DNA of 64,000 nt from Dehalococcoidia bacterium. Lineage in GTDB: Bacteria; Chloroflexota; Dehalococcoidia; UBA2979. The stretch spans positions 2,112,001-2,176,000 of the forward strand of contig OZ253555.1 in the NCBI GenBank assembly GCA_965262725.1, given 5' to 3'. The notes under the pieces are model-generated. The model did not search any database. It was given only the letters and a program-made list of their open reading frames with translations, and was not told the DNA's origin. How positions within the stretch are numbered: the stretch's first letter is position 1; every line of letters starts with the position of its first letter. Positions 4,920 through 19,046 of this stretch are shown piece after piece. The translations under genes and the position numbers were made by a program.

Positions 4920-4981
4920 CTAGTGGAAGACGTTGTCAGCGTGCCACTCAAGCGCCTGCGAACTCGGAACGAGCCGACGGT
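4920..4981 (-). pseudogene. Detached 3' end of the HNH endonuclease gene
   Basis: After removing IS21 the frame continues ...DRRLVPSSQALEWHADNVFH*. Confidence 0.85.
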
Positions 4982-5077
4982 TGTCGATCGCCAGGGTCAT
5001 TGATCCACGCGTCGCCACGGTCATTAGACCACCCGGGACGCCGGTAGGCGGCTTGATATCAGTGAGCGTCTAGCGCG

Positions 5078-5851
5078 TCAATCACCTCCCGTCTGCGCCT
5101 CGAGCAGGGCGCGGTGCGGCGAGAGCCGCTGGCGGTAGCTATCGCCCTCGATCACGATCTGGTAGCTGGCGTTGGCGAGGCGGTCGAGGGCGCTGTTGCC
5201 GAGGATCGGGTCGTCGAAGAGACCCAGCCATTCCTCCACGGCGCGGTTCGAGGTGATGACGAAGCTGGAGCTGCGGTGGCGCCCGATGACCAGCTCGTAG
5301 AGGTCGATGGACTGCTGCGCGCTGAGGCGATGGAGCCCGAGGTCGTCGAGGATGAGCAGGTCGGGCGCGAGGAAGCTTCGAAAGACCTTCTCGGCCGAGT
5401 GGTCGACGCGGGCCTGCGCCATCTCGCGGAAGTAGTGGTCGGCCGGGGCGAAGCGCACGCTGCGTCCGGAGCGGACGGCTGAGTAGCCGAGCGCCTGGGC
5501 TAAGAAGCTCTTGCCGACGCCGACGGGGCCGACGAGCAGGACGTGCTCGCGGCGGTCGAGGAAGTGCAGCGAGAAGGCGGCGTCGAGCAGGCGGCGGTCG
5601 AGCCGGATGGCGGCCGCCCAGTCGAAGTCCTCGAGGCGGCAGAGCTGCTCGAAGCCGGCCTGGCGCAGGCGCAGCTCCAACCGCCCGTGGTCGCGGCGGC
5701 TCACCTCGTCGACGAGGAGGATCTGCAGGAAGTCCGCGTAGTCGAGGTGGTCGCGCCGCGCGAGGGCGATGCGCTCGGGCAGGGTGTCGAGCATACGGCC
5801 GAGCTTGAGGCGCTTGAGCAGCGGGCGGAGGTCTGAGGTGGTGGCGGTCAT
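5078..5851 (-). CDS. istB: IS21 helper ATPase IstB
   Basis: Walker A GPVGVGKS, LLILDDLG, ITSNR, ALDRL; ATGA overlap with istA stop. Confidence 0.95.
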   Translation of the reverse strand: MTATTSDLRPLLKRLKLGRMLDTLPERIALARRDHLDYADFLQILLVDEVSRRDHGRLELRLRQAGFEQLCRLEDFDWAAAIRLDRRLLDAAFSLHFLDRREHVLLVGPVGVGKSFLAQALGYSAVRSGRSVRFAPADHYFREMAQARVDHSAEKVFRSFLAPDLLILDDLGLHRLSAQQSIDLYELVIGRHRSSSFVITSNRAVEEWLGLFDDPILGNSALDRLANASYQIVIEGDSYRQRLSPHRALLEAQTGGD

Positions 5852-7428
5852 CGTGGTGCTCCTGTCGGGGTCTGCGTGCGGGACTGGGCGAAGACGGAGC
5901 CCGAGCGGGCGAAGCGCCCCGGAGGCGGCGGCAGCTCGGGCGGGTCTGGGGTGCTCTCCTGGTCGAGGGCGCGGACGAGGATGCGCTCGAGGCGGCGCAC
6001 GTCGATGAGGTCGACCTCGAGCGCGCGGCGGCAGGCGGCGTCGAGGCGGTCCGGGGAGTAGCGCTCGGCGAGGCGCAGCAGCTTGTGGCCCTGCCGCAGC
6101 TTCGCCCAGGGCAGGGAGCCCTCGAAGAGACGCTCGGCGTAGGCGCCCACGGCCTCCCCCAGCTCGGCGGCGCGGCGCTGTATCCAGTCGGGCGCCCGCC
6201 TGGTGTAGGGGGTGAGCTCGGCCGGGTAGTCGTTCGGGTCGGTGGCGCGGCCGCCCCGGCGCTGGCGCGGGTGGACCTTGATGAGCTGACCGCGGTGGTA
6301 GATGCGCACCAGCTTCGAGCCGAGCTGCACCTCGACCTTCTGGCGGGGCGGGCAGGCCGTGGACGGCACCGAGTACAGGGCGTACTGGCAGGCGATGTGG
6401 TGGTCGGGATGGACCGTGGCGGTCCGCCAGTCGGGGACCTCGTAGGGCTCGCCGTCCCAGGGAGCGAGGAGAGGGAGCTCCTCCTCCCGGAAGACCTCGA
6501 GCGGCCGGCGGCGTGTCGTGCCGTGGATGCGCTGCCCCGCCACCTCGAGGCACCAGCTGCGGGCGGCGGAGCGCAGGTCGACGACGTCCCGGAAGTCGCC
6601 GCCCTTGAAGAGGCGCTCGCGCACGTAGGGGATGCTGCGCTCGACGCGCGGCTTGTCGCGGGGATGACGCACGCGCGCGGGGTCGGTGATGAAGCCGCGG
6701 TGGCGGGCGTACTCGAGGAAGCCCCGCGTGAAGCGCGGGTGCAGCGCGTCGGCCCCGGCGACGGCGGCCGGGAAGTTATCGATGACGAGGTAGCGCGGCA
6801 CGCCCCCGAAGAAGGCCCAGGCCTCCTCCAGGCCCTCGATCACAGCGTCCAGCTTCTGGCTGGTGGTGGGCCACACAAAGCAGTGGCGTGAGTAGCGCCA
6901 GACGACGACCAGCGCCCACACCGCGCGCCGGCGGCCGCTCTCGGGGTCCCGGATGAAGCCGAGGCGGCCGAAGTCCATCTCCGCCACCTCGCCCGGCGGC
7001 CCGTCGTCCATGCGCACCGTCGACGGCAGCCGGTGGCGCCAGCCGCGGCGCCGGATGAAACGCCGCAGCGTGGTGTAGGAGACCTCGCAGCCTCGTCCGG
7101 CGAGGAGCTCCTGGATGCGCGTCAGTTGCAGGCGGTCGGTCTCAAGCCAGCGCTCGATCTGCTCCGCCCAGGGCGAGAGCAGCTCCTCGCTCGGCGCCTC
7201 GACCTGCCGCGGGCCGGAGAGGCTCAGCGTCGCCAGCGCGGCGAGCTGCTCCTCACTCGGCTCGGGACCGCCCGGCGTGAGGCCGGCCGCCTCGGCCGCC
7301 TCGACGTAGCGGCGCACCGTCACGCGCGATAGCCCCGTGCCGCTGGCGATGCGGCGCTGGCTGAGCCCCGCCTGCCAGCGTCGAATGATCTCCTGGATCT
7401 CCACCCCGTGTACCTCCCGGTAGGCCAT
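5848..7428 (-). CDS. istA: IS21 transposase IstA
   Basis: N-terminal HTH, PPGEVAEMDFG, LVIDN, PRDKPRVERS (DDE). Confidence 0.95.
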   Translation of the reverse strand: MAYREVHGVEIQEIIRRWQAGLSQRRIASGTGLSRVTVRRYVEAAEAAGLTPGGPEPSEEQLAALATLSLSGPRQVEAPSEELLSPWAEQIERWLETDRLQLTRIQELLAGRGCEVSYTTLRRFIRRRGWRHRLPSTVRMDDGPPGEVAEMDFGRLGFIRDPESGRRRAVWALVVVWRYSRHCFVWPTTSQKLDAVIEGLEEAWAFFGGVPRYLVIDNFPAAVAGADALHPRFTRGFLEYARHRGFITDPARVRHPRDKPRVERSIPYVRERLFKGGDFRDVVDLRSAARSWCLEVAGQRIHGTTRRRPLEVFREEELPLLAPWDGEPYEVPDWRTATVHPDHHIACQYALYSVPSTACPPRQKVEVQLGSKLVRIYHRGQLIKVHPRQRRGGRATDPNDYPAELTPYTRRAPDWIQRRAAELGEAVGAYAERLFEGSLPWAKLRQGHKLLRLAERYSPDRLDAACRRALEVDLIDVRRLERILVRALDQESTPDPPELPPPPGRFARSGSVFAQSRTQTPTGAPR

Positions 7429-7585
7429 CGCTGCTCCCTCCGCTGGGGATGCAGGCGATGGTGGCCGTACCGGCGACCCGGGCGGGCAGGAGTCCCTGAC
7501 GGGGTGGATCAATGACCCTGGCGAAGTGGATCAATGACCCTGGCGATCTGGCGATTTCGTGGTCTATAGACCTTGGCGATTCACA

Positions 7586-8485
7586 CCGACGGTCGCGTGG
7601 AACGTGTATCCGACGACCAGCCATTTCGTAGTAGTGCTTACCGTTCTCGAACTCGTCACGCAGGCGGGAACTCACGTCTAGGCGCAGATCGGGCGTCACA
7701 GTTACATACCCCGTGTCGTAGAGCCGATGGAGGTCGGACCGAAGCACGATCCCGTTCTGTGGGTGGTTTGATGCCGGACCCAGATACGGCTGAATGTGGG
7801 CAGCCTCGAGAACCGGGATCGCGTGCTCTCCCGTCACCGCGCACTGCTGGTCATACGCGCTCAGCAGCCGCAGGCGGAATGTGCCCTGCCCGCGCCTGTC
7901 TACGCGGACGGCGTCAACGTGATGGCGAGCATCCTGCTCGAGCAACTCGAAGGACGGCTGGAGATCGAGCACAGGCTCCGGATGGGTGCTGCGCAGGAGC
8001 GCTTCGAGGCTTCGACCGTCGGTGGCGAGGTCATAGCCCTTGTAGCTCACGAGATTGGGATGCCACCCCTGGTCCCGTCCCCAGGGGAGCCATCGGTTTC
8101 GTGGCAGGAACACTGCTTCGCGGAGCACAATGCAGGCGAGCTGCGCACCTGCCGCGCGACCGGATCGCAGTCGGTACTCACGGATTCTCCTCTCGAAGTC
8201 CGCTCGCATGGCGTCGCCGTTGCGGTCGCCGAATATCTCCCAGGCGAGCTGGACCGGCATCCGAGACGAGAGGGCAAAGAACCCGAACCCGGCGATGGCG
8301 TTATGTGGCGCCTTCAGGCGGAAGAAGAAGGGCTCACCAGATCTGAGAGCGCGGAATTCGTCCTGAGCCGACGGGCGCCAGAAGTTGACCTCGTCAACCT
8401 CGGTCAACTCATCGGATGGCCGGAAGTAGGAGAACCAGCGTTCATCGGTGGGCGCGACGACGGCCGGCAGGGACGGGGTGGCCAT
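7586..8485 (-). pseudogene. HNH endonuclease (COG3440-like putative restriction endonuclease), interrupted near the C-terminus by IS21
   Basis: EVNFWRPS...GEPFFFRLKAP N-terminal domain; CAVTG...LEAAHIQPY...NGIVLRSDLHRLYD HNH_2 motif. Confidence 0.85.
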
Positions 8486-11235: not shown

Positions 11236-12107
11236 GCCAGTCAGCCCGCTACGAGATCGAGCACGTCACCCGCTACTCCTACACGTCGCCGGTGACCGAC
11301 TCCGTGCTGTCGCTCTGCTTGAAGCCTCGGGACGACGGCGGTCAACGCCTGCTGCGCTTCGAGATGGCTGCCGATCCCCATGGAACGTTCCCCGAGGCTC
11401 TGGACTTCTTCGGGAATGCGACGCACCTCCTCACCGTCCACCAGCAACACGAGGCGCTGGAGATCGCCGCCCGCTCGGCGGTGGAGCGGTTGACGCCGCG
11501 GGCGCTCCCGGAGTCGCTGGCGATGGACACCTGGACGGAGATGCGGCCCTGGGCGGAGTCGTCCGCTGACTGGGAATTCACGCATGCCAGCGCGTTCGCG
11601 CGCCCCTCCCCCGAACTCGAGGCATTCTCCCGACGCGAGGACCTCTTAGCCCCAACCGGGGACCCGCTGAGCGCCGTATCGGGGCTCACTGGTGCGCTCC
11701 ACCGGATCTTCGAGTACATGCCGGGGAGCACGTCGGCGGTCTCCCCCATCGAGCAGATCCTGGAGTCCGGCGTCGGTGTCTGCCAGGACTACGCTCACGT
11801 GATGATCGCCATCGCTCGCTCGTGGGGCGTGCCGTCACGTTATGTTTCGGGCTACCTTCATGTCGCCGACCCTGCTGACCAGCCGACGCGGGGGGAGGCG
11901 AGCCACGCGTGGGTGGAATGCCGGCTCCCCGACCTCGGATGGGTCGGATTCGACCCCACGAATCCGGGACTTGCGCGCGAGCGCTATGTCCGGCTTGCGG
12001 TCGGACGAGACTACCGTGACGTCTCGCCCGTCCGGGGCATCTTTCGGGGCGGGGCCACCGCTGAGCTCACGGTCGGCGTCGTCATGACGCCTCAGGCGAC
12101 AGGCTAG
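11232..12107 (+). CDS. Transglutaminase family protein
   Basis: YEIEHVTRYSY, GVCQDYAH, SHAWVE, GFDPTN, GRDYRDVSP. Confidence 0.95.
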   Translation: MSQSARYEIEHVTRYSYTSPVTDSVLSLCLKPRDDGGQRLLRFEMAADPHGTFPEALDFFGNATHLLTVHQQHEALEIAARSAVERLTPRALPESLAMDTWTEMRPWAESSADWEFTHASAFARPSPELEAFSRREDLLAPTGDPLSAVSGLTGALHRIFEYMPGSTSAVSPIEQILESGVGVCQDYAHVMIAIARSWGVPSRYVSGYLHVADPADQPTRGEASHAWVECRLPDLGWVGFDPTNPGLARERYVRLAVGRDYRDVSPVRGIFRGGATAELTVGVVMTPQATG

Positions 12108-12342
12108 GTCGCGCCGGCCGCGTGCCCAGCCTGAGGGCGGCAGCGTGGCCCCCGGCATCTTCCGGGTGCTTCGCCGATCGTGTGCTCGCGGTCGCTGCGA
12201 TGATCACGCATCACGACCCGGAGACTCGGATCGAGCCCGCTCTCGTCGGCGAGGCTCGCCTGGCGCGCGGCCGCGGTGACGACGCGCAGGCGCGTCTAGG
12301 TTTCGGCCTCCTACGGCTCGGGCTGGGACATGCCCGGTGTTG

Positions 12343-13422
12343 TCAGCGCGAGGGCAACAGCGACCGGAGCGACCACCGGCGGCCGTGCGAGCGCGCCTGT
12401 TGCAGGAGATGGCCAACGTGGTGGTCCTCGAGACAGCCCTCCAGCGAGTTCTCCAGCTGGAACGTGGCGTGCGAAATGCCGTGCACGTTGTGGGCAATCT
12501 CCTGAAGGCGGATGGTCAACTGGTTCGTGTCTCCCCGGTAGTCAGGGTCGAGGAGCACGTGGGCCGTGCATGCTTCGCTGTTCGACGTGATGGTCCAGAC
12601 GTGAACGTCGTGGACGAGGGTGACCCCCTCCAGTTCCTCTATGTCGTGGCAGAGCTTGTACACGTCGATGTGTTTGGGAACCCCTTCCACCAGCACGTGA
12701 AACGCTCGCTGCACCAGAGTCCAGGCGGAGAACAGGATCAACACGCCGATGACGACGCTCAGCAACGGGTCGATGAACTCCCATCCGAAGGCAATGATTA
12801 GCAGGGCCGAAATGATCATGCCGGCAGCTATCAACACGTGGGACATGAGGTGCAAGAAGGCCCCTTCGACGTTGATGCTATGCCGCACTGAACCGTGCAA
12901 CACCCAAGCGCCTGCCGCGTTCACGATCAGCCCGACCGCGGCGACCACGAGGATCGGCAGCCCTTCGGGATGGGCATGAGCATCGCCGCCATGAGCGTGG
13001 GGATCTCCCCCACTGATGCGGTTGTAGGCCTCGAACAGAATGAGTGCCCCAACGACCACGAGGATGCCGACGTTCACCAGTACCGCAAGGACCTCGACGC
13101 GGTAGTAGCCCCAGGTCCGCTCGGCGGAGGCTTCCCGCTGGGCGATCAGCGTGGCGAGGAGTGCCAACGCAAGCCCGCCGCTGTCGGCAAGCATGTGGCC
13201 AGCGTGGGCCAGCAGGGCGAGGCTGCCCGCAAGCCAACCGCTGACCACTTCGAACACCATGAACCCGAAGATGAGGGCCAGCGCGACCGCGAGCCGGCGA
13301 CGACTAAGCCTCCGTAGCTGGTCAGCGTGCTCGTGGTGGGCGCGTCGTACGGCCGCGTGGCCCTGGCCAGCCTGCGCGTCTGGTCGGACTGTCCCGGAAA
13401 CTGAGTCCATCGTCGAAGACAT
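12343..13422 (-). CDS. Cation diffusion facilitator (CzcD/ZitB-like) transporter
   Basis: SLALLAHAGHMLAD, TWGYYRVEVLA, INVEGAFLHL, VHDVHVWTI; His-rich loop. Confidence 0.92.
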   Translation of the reverse strand: MSSTMDSVSGTVRPDAQAGQGHAAVRRAHHEHADQLRRLSRRRLAVALALIFGFMVFEVVSGWLAGSLALLAHAGHMLADSGGLALALLATLIAQREASAERTWGYYRVEVLAVLVNVGILVVVGALILFEAYNRISGGDPHAHGGDAHAHPEGLPILVVAAVGLIVNAAGAWVLHGSVRHSINVEGAFLHLMSHVLIAAGMIISALLIIAFGWEFIDPLLSVVIGVLILFSAWTLVQRAFHVLVEGVPKHIDVYKLCHDIEELEGVTLVHDVHVWTITSNSEACTAHVLLDPDYRGDTNQLTIRLQEIAHNVHGISHATFQLENSLEGCLEDHHVGHLLQQARSHGRRWSLRSLLPSR

Positions 13423-13720
13423 GCTCGGCAGGGTCCTTCGCTAGTGTCCGCTGTGGAGCAAGTTGAGGATGGCCGTCCCGACATCCTACGGGCGCGACTC
13501 CTATAGCTTGCCTCCGACTCGCGCTCCCCGGCACGTCGCCACAATTGCGATAAAGGCAACACCTGGCGCGAGGCCACGTGCAGGCCGCATCACGCCACGT
13601 TCGAACTCCACGCCAGGCCGCATGCGCGGGGCGCACAGCAGCCTGGACTGGCTCGCCCCGGCTGCCCAAGCCGGGGGCTGTGCGCCATCCTGAGCACCTA
13701 GCTCAGGATGGCAAAGCCCG

Positions 13721-16008
13721 CTACTCGGAAGGCGGCGGCGCGGGCGGGACCTCGATCTCGCCGCTGCGGAACCAGACGCCTTGCGGTAGTTCGGCCGGCA
13801 GCAACACGTGCGTCGGCGTGACGGCGTTGCCGTTGGCGTCGCGGAAGCCGAGCTCGATGCGCCCATCGGACAGGCGCCGTGCGCGAATCGTCCCGATCGC
13901 GCTCTCGTTCACCTCGACATCGCTGCTGACGTACCACTGGTCAACGGCGGTATCCACCGGCAGGAAGCGGACAGACGGCAAGACTTGCTGGCCGCTGGCG
14001 AGTTCCACGGCGTGCTCGACGCGGCCGTCCTCGCCCAGCCGGGCGAGGATGCGCAGCGCGTATGGCGATGGCGGTGGCGGTTCCGTCGCCGCGGGCAGTT
14101 CGGGCGCGATGAGCTGGTTGAGCTCTTGGCTACCGCCGAGCCCCAGGCGTCTGAGGAACCGGGAGTTCACCGCATCGACGCCCGCCGCCGTGCAGAGCGT
14201 CGCGTCGGTCGCCAGGCCGTGGGTCGGCAGCGCCGCGCGGAGCTCCGCGTCGAGCTCGAGCAGCCCGTCGCCGTTCTCCACACCAGCCGCTATGAGGGCA
14301 TCGCCGAGCGACGCGTCGCGGCAGGAGGCCATCCGCGCGAGGTCGGCGACCATCGCGCTGACCACGGGATCCTGCCATCCCATCTCGGCGTCGCGGGCGG
14401 CCCGCACGATCTCTCCGGCCGTGATTGCCGGCGCGAGGACGCGCTCGGCGTAGGCGAGCTCGGACTGGAGCGCGAACGCCTCCGCGAAGGAGAGCGCCTC
14501 GCCGTCCGCGACCCGCTCCTGGAGCGCCCTCCAGGAGGCGGCCAACGACCCGTACCGCGCTGCCGCCGTCTCGGCCGTCCCGAGGGTCAGATCCTCGACG
14601 GCGACAGGGCTGATTGCCTCGCCCGAGGCCAGCGCTTCGACCAGCCCGGATCCTGCGATCGCGCTCGCGTACTGCTCCGCGATCGCCCTGGTCAGGGTGG
14701 TCGACGAAGCGTTCTCGAGGCCAGCGGACATCGGCTCGGCCGCGATCGGCAGCGCACCGAGGACCGACTGCTCGAAGATGCCGTCGAGCACCAGGGAGCG
14801 CACGCCTGCCGCGTAGATGGCTCTGGCCCGCAGTGCCTCGTCGATGTCCGCCCCGGGATCGGCGAGCGATGTCACGGAGGTCGTGACGAGCCCCTCTTCG
14901 TCGGCTGAGGCCGTGACCTCGTAGGCCGCACCGTCAACGGTGGCGGCGACCGGGCCGAAGGTCGGGCCGCCCAGCACCATCAGGTTCCGCCAGATGCCGT
15001 GGAACGCGATCTCCTCGCCGGCTTCGTCGAAAGCGATGACCGCGACGAACACCCACGAAGGGCCGGGTTCGCTGAGTGTGACCGCAAACGGCGCCACCCT
15101 GGCGGTCGCGATACTCGTCGCGCTCGCTGTCTGAGCGCCGGAATGATAGGAGACGCCTGCCCGCCACAGCTCCGGCGTCGCGATGATCCGCTCGAACACA
15201 CGAGGCGCCACCACGTACAACACGACGTTGCCGGCGGCGTCAGACAGGTCGCCGCCGCCCGGATTGCCGGTGCGGTAGTGAACGGCGAAGGGCTCGCCCG
15301 CGACCACCTCGTCGGGGGCGTGGGTCGCCTCGATCTTGAGCTGGAAGCGGCCCTGCCGCGCCTCCTCATCCACCAGGTGGACCACGAGGTCGAAGTCAGC
15401 CGTCAGAGGCTGGAGGTCGCGCTGCAGATACGTCGTCGCCTCGATCAGGTAGATACCCGCCGCCAGGTATTGTTCGATGCGTGAGTTGCGGCGGCCGCCA
15501 CCGTCGTCGTTGGCGCCGATGAAGTTCCCATCGGACGAGGCCAGAGAGAGGACCGGGTCGCCGTCGACCGACGTCAGGTCGATGAGCACGCGACCCTCGT
15601 GCGGCAGGTTGAAGGAGTAGGCATAGGCGGGGTGTTCCGCGACCACGCGTGAGCCGCACGTGTCGATCGTCCAGGTGCCGGATGCAGTGAGGTCGATACC
15701 CGGCTCGAGTGTGCCCAGATGTGCCGGCTCGCAACCGGTGACGTGCTCAACGGAAAGCCTGAAGTCCGCCGCGCCGCGTCCGCGTCCGCCGACCGTCGTG
15801 GCCTCGACGAGGTAGATGCCCGCCGCCAGCTCGCGCTCGATGCGCGCGTTGAGGTTGGCGCCGCCGTCGTCGTTGTCCGTGATGCGGGTCCCGTCCTCAT
15901 TCAGGAGGTAGAGGTAGGAATCACCGTCGGTCGACCTCAGGTCGATTCTGATCCGGTCACCCTCGGCGAGTTGGAATCGGTACGTGTGCGCATCGCTGTC
16001 AATGCGAA
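13721..16008 (-). pseudogene. Large secreted protein with two PPC (pre-peptidase C-terminal) domains; 3' part, disrupted by IS1595 element
   Basis: DSYLYLL...DNDDGG..LNARIERELAAGIYLVEATT repeated twice; joins in frame to 19140-19373 (…DCDSRFRI|DSDAHTYRF…). Confidence 0.85.
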
Positions 16009-16069
16009 GGGGACTATATACAATGATGCCCCGGAGTGATAGAATAGGAGTGAAGCGAGGGGAGGGGCA

Positions 16070-17017
16070 ATGGCACGGAAGGCACCGGGACAGCACCGGC
16101 GCGCGGGGATCACCTACGTCTCCCTGGCCAAGATGTTCCCCGACGATGCCGCCGCGGAGAGCTGGTTCGTCGAGGAGCGCTGGCCGAACGGCGTTGCCTG
16201 CCCCAACGACGGCTCACTCAACGTGTTTGCCGGCTCCAAGCACAAGACCATGCCCATGCGCTGCCGCGACTGCCGGAAGCGCTTCAGCGTCCGCACCGGC
16301 ACCGTCATGGAGTCCTCCAACCTCGGCTACCAGACCTGGGCGATCGCCATCTACCTGCTCACCACGTCGCTCAAGGGCGTCTCTTCGATGAAGTTGCACC
16401 GGGATCTCGGCATCACGCAGAAGAGCGCGTGGCACCTGGCCCACCGCATCCGCGAGTCCTTCGATTCGTACGGCGCCGGCTCACCGCTCGACGGCCCGGT
16501 CGAGGTCGACGAGACGTTCGTGGGCGGCCTCGAGAAGAACAAGCACGAGCACAAGCGCCAGCACCAGCGTGGTGGCCCTGCGGGCAAGGCCCCTGTCCTC
16601 GGGATCAGGGACCGCACGAGCGGCGAGGTTCGCGCCCGCGCCGTCTCGCAGACGGACGGCGACACACTGCGCGGATTCGTCCGTGAGAACACCCGTCCGG
16701 GGTCGCAGGTCTACTCGGACGGCCACAGCGCCTACGTCCCGCTTGAGGGCGAGTACAAGCACGACGCCGTCCAGCACTCGGTTGGGACGTACGTGATCGG
16801 GGATGCCCACACCAACGGTATCGAGAGCTTCTGGTCGATGCTGAAGCGCGGCTACGTCGGGACGTATCACTTCATGAGTCCGAAGCACCTCGACCGTTAC
16901 GTGCGGGAGTTCTCAGGCCGTCACAACCAGCGCCCGCTCGACACGATCGACCAGATGCGGGCGGTCTGGCGCGGCATGGTGGGGCGAAGGTTGCGCTACG
17001 ACGAACTCACGGGGTAG
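16070..17017 (+). CDS. IS1595 family transposase
   Basis: Zn ribbon (CPND...CRDC), HTH (SSMKLHRDLGITQKSAW), GPVEVDETFVGG, VYSDG, HTNGIESFWSMLKR. Confidence 0.95.
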   Translation: MARKAPGQHRRAGITYVSLAKMFPDDAAAESWFVEERWPNGVACPNDGSLNVFAGSKHKTMPMRCRDCRKRFSVRTGTVMESSNLGYQTWAIAIYLLTTSLKGVSSMKLHRDLGITQKSAWHLAHRIRESFDSYGAGSPLDGPVEVDETFVGGLEKNKHEHKRQHQRGGPAGKAPVLGIRDRTSGEVRARAVSQTDGDTLRGFVRENTRPGSQVYSDGHSAYVPLEGEYKHDAVQHSVGTYVIGDAHTNGIESFWSMLKRGYVGTYHFMSPKHLDRYVREFSGRHNQRPLDTIDQMRAVWRGMVGRRLRYDELTG

Positions 17018-17033
17018 GAGTTACACAAAATAG

Positions 17034-17276
17034 CTAGGGGGCGGTCCATATCCGTAACAGCATCATCGTTGCCATCACGATGGTCGTGATCGAAGGGACC
17101 GCGACGGCGACCACCAGCCAGCGCGCCATGCTGAACTGACCCTCGATGTTTGCGATTTTGGTCGTTAGTGCTCCCTCGGTTTTGGCAAGGGCAGTTTGCG
17201 TCGCGAAGTAACGGCGGACCTCATCGGCGGCGATATAGCCCATGGCTTTGCCGTTGCCGTCCGGCGCGTCTGTCAT
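17034..17276 (-). CDS. Small coiled-coil protein with C-terminal TM helix (cargo)
   Basis: FATQTALAKTEGALTTKIANIEG then ARWLVVAVAVPSITTIVMATMMLL; ATGA overlap with upstream ORF. Confidence 0.65.
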   Translation of the reverse strand: MTDAPDGNGKAMGYIAADEVRRYFATQTALAKTEGALTTKIANIEGQFSMARWLVVAVAVPSITTIVMATMMLLRIWTAP

Positions 17277-17551
17277 ACCCGGACTCCTTCGATCGCGCGC
17301 AGCCACGCCCATATGCGTGTCCAAGTAGAGCCAGCGATCGGAGCCCTTACGTTTAGGACAAGCACAGGCGATCCGTTGCCTAGACGTGCAACTACATCAG
17401 CGACTTCTAGGTCGTCACCGTGGACGAAGAACACATCATCCGTGAACCGGATGTGGTCATCACCGGGGAATGCCTGAGCGATCTGCTCCCGGATCTGCTG
17501 GTTTGCGTCGGACTCATCATCGTGTAGAAGCACCACATAGGAGTTGATCAT
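17273..17551 (-). CDS. Small hypothetical protein, possible Cas2/VapD-like ferredoxin fold (cargo)
   Basis: 92 aa, MINSYVVLLHDD...IREQI...DVFFV...VLVLNV...WAWL; RBS GAGAG and TGCTACAAT promoter upstream; fold assignment is inference. Confidence 0.6.
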   Translation of the reverse strand: MINSYVVLLHDDESDANQQIREQIAQAFPGDDHIRFTDDVFFVHGDDLEVADVVARLGNGSPVLVLNVRAPIAGSTWTRIWAWLRAIEGVRV

Positions 17552-17705
17552 GGTCGCTCTCTCTTGGTTAGGCACGAGCATTCTCCCTGTGCCGCGGTGC
17601 GGGCGGGATTGTAGCAGGCGCCGTACCCCGCGACGACACCGATCACGCGCCTCAATCGATCCGAAGCGCTGCGCGAGTGTGCGGATGCGCATTCTGCACC
17701 ACGAT

Positions 17706-18161
17706 CTACCGCCAGCCGAGGAGGTCAGAGCATTCCGCCGACTGAGTACCGAAATCCAACTCCCCGCCGCCGTTGTAGTAAGAGGCAGCGTACAGACCGA
17801 CCTGCTCCGCTGCCCCTCTCGTGTAGGTGCCTTCCGACACTACCTGGGCGATCCCGCCGCTGACAGCGGTGATCGACAGTCGATAGCCGGTCCCCTGCTC
17901 GAAGCACGAGCCGTACAGCTCGGCACCCTCGGATGGCACGGCGACCTGCACGACGGTGTCGATGCCGGTGACGGTGACGGACTCGACGGGATTGGCGACG
18001 GTCACGGTCTCGACCGGGTTCGCGATGGTCACCGTGTCGACCGGGTTTGCCACCGTGACCGTCTTGTCCATGACAGACACAAGGATCATCCCCGTCAGGG
18101 CCAACTGGACCGCAACTGCCAGAGCAGCGAGCCCGAACAATATGCTTCTGGCTGTCGGCAT
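17706..18161 (-). CDS. Secreted/membrane-anchored protein with 9-aa tandem repeats (cargo)
   Basis: N-terminal hydrophobic helix; (TVTVANPVD)(TVTIANPVE)(TVTVANPVE)(SVTVTGID); RBS GAGGAGG. Confidence 0.75.
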   Translation of the reverse strand: MPTARSILFGLAALAVAVQLALTGMILVSVMDKTVTVANPVDTVTIANPVETVTVANPVESVTVTGIDTVVQVAVPSEGAELYGSCFEQGTGYRLSITAVSGGIAQVVSEGTYTRGAAEQVGLYAASYYNGGGELDFGTQSAECSDLLGWR

Positions 18162-18195
18162 GGGAGCCTCCTCGCGGAGCAGTCGGGAGTTGACC

Positions 18196-18293
18196 GCTCT
18201 GGGCAGAAGGGCCACACCAGCACCATCCCGCGAGAAGGCACGAGGTCCTCCCGGGCTGCTGAACGGCACGGGTGTTGCGGCTCTGCCCAGAGC
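18196..18293 (-). ncRNA. Putative structured RNA leader, copy A
   Basis: 13-bp closing stem GCTCTGGGCAGAG/TTCTGCCCAGAGC, two nested stems with G-U pairs, apical TCGTGCC; homologous to copy B. Confidence 0.65.
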
Positions 18294-18321
18294 TCGCCGG
18301 TAGCCTTGGCGGTGTGCCCGC

Positions 18322-18378
18322 CGTTTGTCAAGGCGGCGACGCCGCCATTGGACAAACGCCCTAGACGACCGCTAATCT
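18322..18378. promoter_or_regulatory. Divergent promoter region with palindrome GTTTGTC-AA-GGCGGCG-A-CGCCGCC-ATT-GGACAAAC
   Basis: TTGACA on minus strand; TGGACA...TAATCT on plus strand; lies between the two RNA leaders. Confidence 0.55.
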
Positions 18379-18389
18379 GCCCTCCGTAA

Positions 18390-18488
18390 GCTCTCCGCAA
18401 AGAGCTCGGACACCGGCGCGAACGAAAGCGAGCAGGGGCCTTCGTGCCTCCTTGCGGCTCGTGTCGGTGCGGCCCCTTTGCGGAGAGC
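18390..18488 (+). ncRNA. Putative structured RNA leader, copy B
   Basis: Perfect 13-bp stem GCTCTCCGCAAAG/CTTTGCGGAGAGC, nested CACCGGCGCGA/TCGTGTCGGTG, apical TCGTGCC. Confidence 0.65.
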
Positions 18489-18565
18489 GGTCTACCCCGC
18501 TTGCGCCGCAAGGGGGCTCCACGTGACCCCTCCCGGCTGCGCGCTGCCGACGCCCGCGAAGGAAG

Positions 18566-18748
18566 GTGATTCAAATGGAAGTGCTCCTGATTCTCGCGGT
18601 CTTGTGGGGGCTGCCCGTGGTGATCATCGGACTGATGGCCGACAGCCGCGGCCGCTCGCTGGCGTGGGTGATCTGGCCGCTTATGCTCGGCTGGATCGGC
18701 TGGGTTGTCGCCTTCCTGGCGCTGGTGAACCAGCCGAAGACGAAGTAG
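18566..18748 (+). CDS. Small two-TM membrane protein (cargo)
   Basis: MEVLLILAVLWGLPVVIIGLMADSRGRSLAWVIWPLMLGWIGWVVAFLAL; RBS AAGGAAGGTGA. Confidence 0.75.
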   Translation: MIQMEVLLILAVLWGLPVVIIGLMADSRGRSLAWVIWPLMLGWIGWVVAFLALVNQPKTK

Positions 18749-18839
18749 GTCGCGCCCCCACAGGTTTACGCTGACGCTCACTGGACAACCGCCATGGGGG
18801 ACGCCACACTTTCTGAGTGAAGGGCGGGAGGAGCACCCC

Positions 18840-18965
18840 ATGGGTAACGAGAAGGATCTGCGGATTCCGACGACGCCGAAGGAGCTGGCGAAGGCGATTC
18901 TGAGCACGCCTCCGAAGCGCCGCTATCCACGGGGAGCACCACCACCCGCTTCCGTCACCAGGTAG
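18840..18965 (+). CDS. 41-aa small protein (cargo)
   Basis: MGNEKDLRIPTTPKELAKAILSTPPKRRYPRGAPPPASVTR with GGAGGAG RBS; below ORF-track cutoff. Confidence 0.5.
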   Translation: MGNEKDLRIPTTPKELAKAILSTPPKRRYPRGAPPPASVTR

Positions 18966-18969
18966 GAGG

Positions 18970-19046
18970 TGGCGCCGGGGAAGGGTCTCGAACCCTCGTC
19001 TTCCCGATTAACAATCGGGCGCTCTCACCTACTGAGCTACCCCGGC
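18970..19046 (-). tRNA. tRNA-Asn (GTT), CCA encoded, inside the transposon
   Basis: GCCGGGG TA GCTC AGTAGGTGA GAGC G CCCGA TTGTTAA TCGGG AAGAC GAGGG TTCGAGA CCCTT CCCCGGC G CCA; full cloverleaf, 77 nt. Confidence 0.9.

Follow-up and report, generated by a model that had tools for sequence, protein, structure and literature searches.

An IS1595-family transposon in a Dehalococcoidia bacterium carries a tRNA-Asn gene with tRNA-Asp-like states at fidelity positions

Background

Can a transposon carry a transfer RNA that alters how its host reads asparagine codons? The question is raised by one gene in a 64,000-nucleotide stretch of the genome of a Dehalococcoidia bacterium of the UBA2979 lineage (contig OZ253555.1, positions 2,112,001 to 2,176,000; this whole stretch is referred to below as the window). 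The gene encodes a tRNA-Asn, and it is carried within a 3,131-bp transposon of the IS1595 family of insertion sequences (IS; window positions 16009-19139). We regard it as all but certain that the tRNA is foreign transposon cargo. It joins four nucleotide states that are tied to a block of amidation and to the admission of Asp-tRNA by EF-Tu, and its host depends wholly on amidation for Asn-tRNA. Miscoding of asparagine as aspartate is a tentative proposal that follows from these features.

Results and discussion

A tRNA-Asn with unusual features

ARAGORN identifies a single tRNA in the window, tRNA-Asn(gtt) on the minus strand at 18970-19046, and the gene passes the threshold of Rfam RF00005 by a wide margin (71.4 bits, E 1.3e-13, model positions 1-71; gathering score 29). 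The acceptor stem GCCGGGG/CCCCGGC gives a G1-C72 first pair and is followed by the discriminator G73 and by a CCA that is encoded in the gene. The D-loop (AGUAGGUGA) is 9 nt long, with an extra G20a after G18 G19 U20, and the anticodon starts at position 35. The anticodon loop (UUGUUAA, 7 nt) has U33 and A37, the variable loop is AAGAC, and the T-arm GAGGG-UUCGAGA-CCCUU contains A60 together with the pairs G49-U65 and G51-C63. All cloverleaf and tertiary-pair positions are kept. A preliminary description of this DNA, made from its letters, had listed the GTT anticodon, G73, G1-C72, the 9-nt D-loop with its extra base and a purine at position 60, and each of these is present in the gene; the strand and the two T-stem pairs are additions to that list. 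C38 is important for tRNA-Asp. The defining features of tRNA-Asp, anticodon GUC with C36 and C38, are absent from the window tRNA, which has GUU and A38.

The host makes Asn-tRNA by amidation

The host genome is a single contig of 3,674,403 bp with 70.6% G+C. Neither asnS nor glnS was found in it, the best matches being 109 bits to TIGR00457 (cut-off 342.6) for asnS and 27.8 bits (cut-off 425.8) for the gene of GlnRS. A search with the Pfam family tRNA-synt_2 returned two genes, which NCBIfam models assign to a bacterial aspartate-tRNA ligase and a lysine-tRNA ligase; AspRS and LysRS are the only class IIb synthetases of the host, and the single AspRS is of the bacterial type (774 bits to NF001750). 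Genes for gatA, gatB, and gatC are present, each above its model cut-off, and encode a bacterial-type GatCAB. Since AsnRS and GlnRS are missing and GatCAB is present, Asn-tRNA and Gln-tRNA must both arise through tRNA-dependent amidation. As the genome is a single contig without AsnRS, we infer that the host AspRS is non-discriminating. The 3_10 turn of GatB has been reported to discriminate U1-A72 from G1-C72, with deletion or insertion there switching the preference of GatCAB for U1-A72 on or off (Nakamura 2010). The alignment of host and S. aureus GatB is free of gaps across this turn (K183-M184-E185 in S. aureus), and the host residues are D-M-E.

First pairs in the host are divided along the same line, with U1-A72 in tRNA-Asn and both tRNA-Gln and G1-C72 in tRNA-Asp and tRNA-Glu. 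The host's own tRNA-Asn (3463787-3463862 on the host contig, ARAGORN) has an 8-nt D-loop, C49-G65, and A51-U63, whereas its tRNA-Asp has a 9-nt D-loop and G49-U65. The window tRNA and the host tRNA-Asn have the identity elements G73, G34, U35, U36, and G10 in common. The preliminary description had made its reading depend on a host that lacks asnS and has aspS and gatCAB, and on a host tRNA-Asn that does not itself begin with G1-C72; the genome agrees on both counts, with a bacterial-type aspS and with U1-A72 and the shorter D-loop in the host gene.

Departure from lineage tRNA-Asn at fidelity positions

Canonical tRNA-Asn genes are present in 36 of 41 genomes including the host (E <= 1e-8), and the host gene is 100% identical to those of three same-genus genomes and 99% identical to that of a fourth. 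For the host and 29 relatives the gene could be parsed (30 loci returned; one extra ARAGORN call in L270 is spurious). All 30 have U1-A72, G73, and an anticodon that starts at position 33 or 34. The same 30 genes all lack a U at position 65 and have A-U or U-A at 51-63, the pattern that leads EF-Tu to reject the Asp-charged form. The window tRNA departs from these lineage genes at all four published fidelity positions, in each case toward the state of tRNA-Asp.

The published biochemistry gives these positions their meaning. U1-A72 promotes amidation of tRNAAsn; G1-C72 lowers it about 100-fold and an added U20A about 10-fold, and the combined variant tRNAAsn(G1-C72,+U20A) is reported to lose amidation by the N. 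meningitidis AdT (the GatCAB amidotransferase) completely, with the T. thermophilus enzyme relying on the same tRNA elements (Bailly 2006). This report bears out what the preliminary description had said of U1-A72 and of G1-C72 with an extra D-loop base. A GatCAB substrate is marked by U1-A72 and by the absence of a base 20A, and the window tRNA has neither mark. The failure of EF-Tu to bind Asp-tRNAAsn has been attributed to G49-C65 and A51-U63, and introducing G49-U65 and G51-C63 into tRNAAsn reportedly brings binding to within 4-fold of that of Asp-tRNAAsp (Roy 2007). In a tRNA-Asn whose Asp-charged form EF-Tu rejects, pair 49-65 is free of U and pair 51-63 contains one; in the window tRNA it is the other way round. 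The determinants described for archaeal AdT are G46 and U47 (Bailly 2006). Of the archaeal-type features, the window tRNA has G1-C72 and G46, and position 47 is A where the archaeal type has U47.

To place this combination among other tRNA-Asn genes, 72 unique genes with a 9-nt D-loop were collected by pattern from metagenome contigs (104 stretches) and viral contigs (18 stretches). In 27 the stems were out of the register of the window tRNA and these were left out. Among the 45 that could be parsed, 25 have G1-C72, 11 of these from viral contigs, and in none of the 25 do G49-U65 and G51-C63 occur together.

The transposon and its insertion

From left to right, the element consists of an inverted repeat, the transposase on the plus strand, about 1.8 kb with open reading frames (ORFs), a 41-aa ORF on the plus strand, the tRNA on the minus strand, a leader hairpin, and the right inverted repeat (Table 1). 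The transposase has a DDE_Tnp_IS1595 domain (PF12762, 1.6e-39) and an N-terminal Zn_ribbon_IS1595 domain (PF12760, 1.3e-5), which place it in the IS1595 family. An 8-bp target duplication is typical of this family, and the window element has both terminal inverted repeats and such a duplication. It is present once in the genome and has a G+C content of 64.2%, compared with 69.9% for the window. The preliminary description had offered a foreign tRNA as an alternative, and the location of the gene inside a transposon shows this directly. A genomic island integrated at the tRNA by an integrase was considered and rejected, as no integrase was found and the neighbor is a DDE transposase.

The 41-aa ORF converges on the tRNA, with its stop codon 4 nt from the tRNA 3' end. 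On the other side of the tRNA, a 9-nt strand of the leader (19087-19095) pairs with the 3' trailer (18960-18968) around the hairpin and the tRNA, and the predicted fold of the leader-tRNA-trailer region has an energy of -85.2 kcal/mol (z -4.18). Two of the three candidate cargo ORFs on the minus strand have predicted membrane segments (by eye; G+C at third codon positions 0.63-0.79). Neither these, the 60-aa ORF nor the 41-aa ORF match a Pfam family at gathering score, and Pfam searches found no synthetase domain in the ORFs of the element.

Table 1 Features of the tRNA-bearing element, the interrupted gene, and minihelix RNAs of related elements. Positions are those of the window unless a locus is named.
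Feature	Position	Strand	Evidence
3' part of interrupted gene, PPC-domain protein	13721..16008	-	Pfam PPC 2.5e-10
Left target-site duplication copy, 8 bp, AATGCGAA	16001..16008	.	sequence; identical to 19140-19147
Left terminal inverted repeat (IRL), GGGGACTATATACAATGATGCCCCGG	16009..16034	+	26 nt, 77% complementary to 19114-19139
IS1595-family DDE transposase, 315 aa	16070..17017	+	Pfam
Three possible cargo ORFs (17706-18269, 17273-17692, 17034-17324)	17034..18269	-	ORF list
Possible 60-aa hydrophobic ORF	18566..18748	+	ORF list
Small conserved ORF, 41 aa, MGNEKDLRIPTTPKELAKAIL...	18840..18965	+	ORF list; homologues beside tRNA/tRNA-like genes
tRNA-Asn(GUU) with G1-C72, G73, 9-nt D-loop, G49-U65, G51-C63, encoded CCA	18970..19046	-	ARAGORN, Rfam, sequence
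tRNA leader with hairpin (~19056-19086)	19047..19113	-	RNA fold, inverted repeat
Right terminal inverted repeat (IRR)	19114..19139	-	repeat search, sequence
Right target-site duplication copy, AATGCGAA	19140..19147	.	sequence
5' part of interrupted gene, ~75 codons	19148..19373	-	reconstructed ORF, empty-site contigs
Minihelix RNAs, ~70 nt	L030 4418-4488; L038 8748-8816; L039 8125-8194; L040 7316-7386	- (all)	right-end reading

Removing the element and one duplication copy in silico restores a single ORF of 837 codons, and paralogues of the interrupted gene in genomes G003 and G001 are continuous across the insertion point. Contigs from public runs contain both states of the site. It is filled in X1, probably the source sample, and in X5, from another study, whose contigs cross both junctions. 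It is empty in X6 (one contig) and X10 (two contigs), from two further studies, which join 15999 to 19139. The 3,139 bases skipped equal the element together with a single copy of the duplication, and the flanks differ by 0-2 letters. The X6 and X10 contigs have almost no cover over 17029-19113, and the cargo could be present elsewhere in those samples. Because the exact empty site occurs in near-identical strains while the site is filled in X1 and X5, the insertion is a recent one that varies from strain to strain in this group. Such a site in otherwise near-identical DNA also identifies the element as an active or recently active transposon.

The insertion lies within a 7.7-kb stretch (12076-19818) that is extra DNA relative to the same-genus genome G003. 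This stretch holds a cation-efflux gene, the PPC-domain gene, the transposon, and the 5' end of the interrupted gene, and its genes have 70%-identical paralogues on the second contig of G003. A second cation-efflux gene is found at 20392-21327. A tmRNA gene (tag GERQLALAA; 2110198-2110550 on the host contig) lies 1.5 kb before the start of the window and about 18 kb from the transposon, to which no link was seen.

Related transposons and the tRNA slot

Relatives of the transposase number 383 in genome contigs. The best 80 of these are 57-71% identical and are mostly found in metagenome-assembled genomes labelled Chloroflexota, Dehalococcoidia, or Tepidiformaceae, with other phyla represented too. 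We kept 32 of the 80 loci, in which the best inverted match had an GGGGATTATATA-type end, an end common to the window element and its relatives; the other 48 were left out of the right-end analysis. These 32 elements are 1.5-4.7 kb long (all but one at least 2.0 kb), and most have an 8-bp repeat at their ends, as judged by eye without a tally. Adding the window element and a second element of the host (L030, two copies in the host genome) gave 34 right ends.

In six of the 34, a hairpin is followed by a tRNA or tRNA-like gene that points inward. The six are the window element (Asn), L056, and four elements with minihelices (L030, L038, L039, and L040); the L056 gene is called tRNA-Leu(CAA) by ARAGORN and falls below the Rfam gathering score. 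The hairpin preceding the tRNA or tRNA-like gene was obtained by folding in L030, L038, L039, L040, and L056, and was seen by eye in L028. All six tRNA-slot elements have a TAnnnT hexamer (TAGGCT, TAGGAT, TAGTCT, or TAAGGT) about 30-45 nt inside the right end, noted by eye without a test.

The minihelices consist of an alanine-type acceptor, a T-arm, and one long hairpin with a 9-nt loop, and a strong hairpin lies upstream at the right end. They have G1-C72, G2-C71, G3-U70, A73, and CCA, an acceptor like that of host tRNA-Ala and tmRNA, and lack both a D-arm and a 7-nt anticodon loop; ARAGORN and Rfam miss them. The set comprises four sequences, two of them nearly identical, and the alignment is poor at one 5' end. 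BLAST among 300 genomes of the class returned one partial match outside the host. The idea that a minihelix is a copy of the end of the host tmRNA has no support, the local alignment score being only 13.

The tRNA or minihelix slot is sporadic. Many related elements have no tRNA, and the small ORF then adjoins the inverted repeat, directly so in L045. L060, L083, L090, and L097 contain a GTTC[GA]A hexamer but, by eye, no acceptor or T-arm pairing, and a T-loop-like match beside the small ORF of L037 is spurious. The small ORF has the consensus ...DLRIPxTPxxLAxAxL... and is convergent with the tRNA or minihelix in the window element, L028, L030, L036, L038, and L039; in L028 and L036, this ORF-tRNA module is also inverted in orientation.

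Full tRNAs occur elsewhere in the family. In L028, L036, and L042, the transposase is followed by a tRNA that is read in its direction. The "tRNA-Phe(GAA)" of L028 (about 702346-704300 on the host contig, L028 2346-4300) scores 69 bits with Rfam and has U73 and a 10-nt D-loop, and its body is 77% identical to host tRNA-Cys(GCA). A small ORF of the family described above converges on it, and the gene has a truncated IS1595 transposase and a single GGGGATTATATA-type end as neighbors. A sequence between this tRNA and the transposase remnant, GGGGCCATTATAGGGG, may be the end of a second element, for which no left end was found. A homologue in L106, 77% identical and also called "tRNA-Phe(GAA)", again has U73. 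The L036 tRNA is Cys-like with an 8-nt anticodon loop. Within the L039 element (4937-8280), a class-II tRNA on the minus strand (6158-6242) has a long variable arm, G73, and the anticodon CCA (Trp), and scores 54.8 bits with Rfam, with two non-standard D-stem pairs. By its body and G73 discriminator this tRNA is presumably Ser-like. Homology between the window tRNA and the other IS-borne tRNAs was considered and rejected, as their identity of 57-69% does not exceed that to host tRNAs (73%). Given this low identity, the slot tRNAs are equivalent in position, and we do not claim common descent for them.

Three further observations concern related or tRNA-like sequences. Positions 2360-2530 of L028 and the right ends of L036 and L088 have in common a structured leader upstream of inward-reading cargo ORFs, with the conserved blocks ...GCTCACCAC...CCTGCGG...GTGGTGAGCGG...CCGCAGGGAGGCACCC followed by a start codon. 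The L028 leader has no Rfam match at E <= 1, and the leader of the three elements may be a cis-regulatory RNA of a new type. ARAGORN also calls three identical 82-nt "tRNA-Ser(tga)" genes on the host contig (342535-342616, 405878-405959, and 736840-736921), which lack CCA, form a poor cloverleaf, and are probably a repeated element with a T-arm-like motif. A "tRNA-Arg(tct)" call at 2606667-2606743 shares its 3' 47 nt with the true tRNA-Arg(tct) at 3245860-3245935 and is unrelated in its 5' part; it looks like an attachment-site copy left over from an integrated element.

Source of the window tRNA

No counterpart of the window tRNA was found in 40 relatives, where eleven of the best matches, when read with ARAGORN, proved to be tRNA-Gly, Phe, Thr, Met, and Lys at 73-78%, or in 400 sampled genomes of the phylum, where the three matches are tRNA-Met, Thr, and Gly. 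In plasmid records, all matches were short ones to the transposase. In phage records, the cargo region is matched best by the tRNA-Asn genes of Halorubrum viruses (HF2, HF1, and the HRTV group), annotated as tRNA-Asn or tRNA-Asx and 79.7-82.7% identical over 75-79 nt. The occurrence of G1-C72 tRNA-Asn in phages, pointed out in the preliminary description, is thus seen in these haloarchaeal viruses as well as in the viral contigs surveyed above. The window and haloviral tRNAs have the same pattern in the acceptor and anticodon stems, with changes on both sides of pairs 5-68 and 29-41. Their differences fall exactly at G20a, pairs 49-65 and 51-63, position 47, and the encoded CCA.

Possible consequences for decoding

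The proposal that these observations suggest is as follows. The tRNA would be transcribed inward from the transposon end behind the leader hairpin and processed to a mature tRNA. Host AspRS would aspartylate it through G73, G34, U35, U36, and G10, as expected in a host that makes Asn-tRNA only by a non-discriminating AspRS followed by bacterial GatCAB. GatCAB would be expected to refuse the Asp-charged tRNA because of G1-C72 and the extra D-loop base, and EF-Tu to accept it because of G49-U65 and G51-C63, so that some AAC and AAU codons would be read as aspartate. We consider the complete chain, up to measurable asparagine-to-aspartate miscoding, a possibility to be held tentatively. Four rough estimates entered this grading, each rating its step as likely (the third highest, then the second, with the first and fourth alike), and their product falls well short of even.

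Several points weigh against this proposal. A change of anticodon in a tRNA-Asp is too simple an account of the window tRNA, whose body is overall closer to host tRNA-Asn (70% identity) than to host tRNA-Asp (60%). Its extra D-loop base is G20a, and the tested anti-determinant is U20A. The reported amidation and EF-Tu experiments used Neisseria and Thermus systems, none of them from Chloroflexota (Bailly 2006, Roy 2007). A scan of 18700-19250 found no sigma-70 consensus promoter. As each tRNA-Asn is encoded by one gene, a high level of miscoding ought to harm the cell. The filled allele is nevertheless held in two independent studies (X1 and X5), and its persistence despite the expected harm points to weak expression, weak charging, or tolerance. 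Finally, RNAs that resemble tRNA and are unable to decode occupy the same slot in related elements, and the need of the transposon may therefore be structural.

This last point leads to the main alternative, namely that the tRNA is a structural RNA part of the transposon and not a decoder, its anticodon and fidelity positions being incidental. The slot beside the right inverted repeat would then need a hairpin and an acceptor/T-arm minihelix ending in CCA, which any tRNA could supply, for uses such as processing by RNase P or RNase Z, stability of the 3' end, or antisense regulation of the convergent small ORF and of transposase mRNA. Five further right ends in which a hairpin and a tRNA or tRNA-like gene are placed and oriented alike, four of them minihelices, are consistent with such a role, as are the recurrence of the module of small ORF and convergent tRNA in L028 and L036, there also inverted, the predicted pairing of leader and trailer around the hairpin and tRNA, and the disagreement of anticodon and body in other copies. 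However, the window tRNA, with its full set of cloverleaf and tertiary positions, its 7-nt loop with U33 and A37, and its 71 bits, is more than a processing signal needs, and many related elements do without a tRNA, their small ORF lying against the inverted repeat. We consider a purely structural role somewhat unlikely; it would still imply transcription and is compatible with charging and miscoding as a side effect.

In a second alternative, the tRNA is a silent hitchhiker from an archaeal-type source that in this host fails to be expressed, fails to be processed, or fails to be charged, and so has no effect. The lack of a consensus promoter upstream is consistent with this, and so are the foreign body of the tRNA, its single copy, its absence from the other genomes searched, and an insertion so recent and polymorphic that selection has had little time. 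The flawless cloverleaf argues otherwise, as does a CCA encoded as in host tRNAs, in contrast to the haloviral relatives that lack it, and the gene stands behind a leader hairpin that is conserved in related elements, an arrangement suggestive of a transcription unit; on balance this alternative appears unlikely. The tRNA could also be an ordinary additional tRNA-Asn that is loaded with asparagine by a host GatCAB tolerant of G1-C72 and the longer D-loop. G1-C72 alone is reported to lower amidation about 100-fold, not to zero (Bailly 2006), S. aureus GatCAB is reported to act on archaeal G1-C72 Asp-tRNAAsn at 0.05 versus 0.24 per second (Nakamura 2010), and one of the two archaeal AdT determinants, G46, is present. 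On the other hand, G1-C72 with a base at 20A abolished amidation in the only reported test (Bailly 2006), host GatB has the bacterial residues in its 3_10 turn, and the host has to turn away its own Asp-tRNAAsp, in which G1-C72 and the longer D-loop are likewise present. This makes an ordinary tRNA-Asn improbable.

Disagreement between body and anticodon extends beyond the window tRNA to the Cys-like bodies with GAA or an 8-nt loop and to the class-II tRNA with a CCA anticodon in L039. An IS1595-type lineage in Chloroflexota could thus spread such tRNAs as a mobile source of regulated or selfish miscoding that varies in copy number, a generalization that we rate as quite unlikely. If the proposal for the window tRNA is true, a single transposition event would alter the fidelity of asparagine decoding, and the strains that coexist in nature with a filled or an empty site would offer a natural experiment. 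Even without decoding, the recurring hairpin and tRNA or alanine-type minihelix at the transposon end point to an undescribed RNA component.

Comparison with known systems

Siguier, Gagnevin and Chandler reportedly described, in 2009, "transporter IS" of the IS1595 family that carry passenger genes. The window element resembles these in its DDE_Tnp_IS1595 domain and zinc ribbon, its inverted repeats, its 8-bp duplication, and the genes between the transposase and the right end; it differs in that the passengers include a tRNA gene with its own leader hairpin. Relatives of IS families that carry passengers are documented more widely (PMC4611040), and a full-text search of a limited library found no report of an IS-borne or transposon-encoded tRNA. 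The closest tRNAs, those of HF2-like haloarchaeal viruses (Halorubrum phage HF2 and HRTV-22), share G1-C72, G73, the stem pattern, and a mobile carrier with the window tRNA. They have an 8-nt D-loop, G49-C65, A51-U63, U47, and no CCA, whereas the window tRNA has G20a, G49-U65, G51-C63, A47, and CCA and, unlike them, is carried by a bacterial DDE transposon.

Natural tRNAs dedicated to miscoding have been described in Streptomyces and Kitasatospora as tRNAProX (Schuntermann 2023). As in that case, the window tRNA is a natural bacterial tRNA whose body and anticodon point to different amino acids, and codon-specific miscoding is predicted. The tRNAProX gene is reported to adjoin a special ProRS and to place proline at Asn or Thr codons (Schuntermann 2023), whereas the window element encodes no synthetase; the effect of its tRNA would come from escaping amidation, and the gene resides on a transposon. 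The expected error is the same as that of mycobacterial GatCAB mutations, which are reported to cause asparagine-to-aspartate miscoding (PMC11415595). Unamidated Asp-tRNAAsn reaches the ribosome of a GatCAB-dependent organism in those mutants, as it would here. In the mycobacteria, the enzyme is weakened and all tRNA-Asn is affected (PMC11415595), whereas in the Dehalococcoidia host one extra tRNA would evade a normal enzyme. Parallels to the tRNA itself are found in two laboratory variants, tRNAAsn(G1-C72,+U20A) (Bailly 2006) and tRNAAsn with G49-U65 and G51-C63 (Roy 2007). In those studies the two sets of changes were made apart, as in vitro constructs on Neisseria and Thermus backgrounds, and the added base was U20A; the window tRNA, with a G at that place, unites the two sets in one natural gene.

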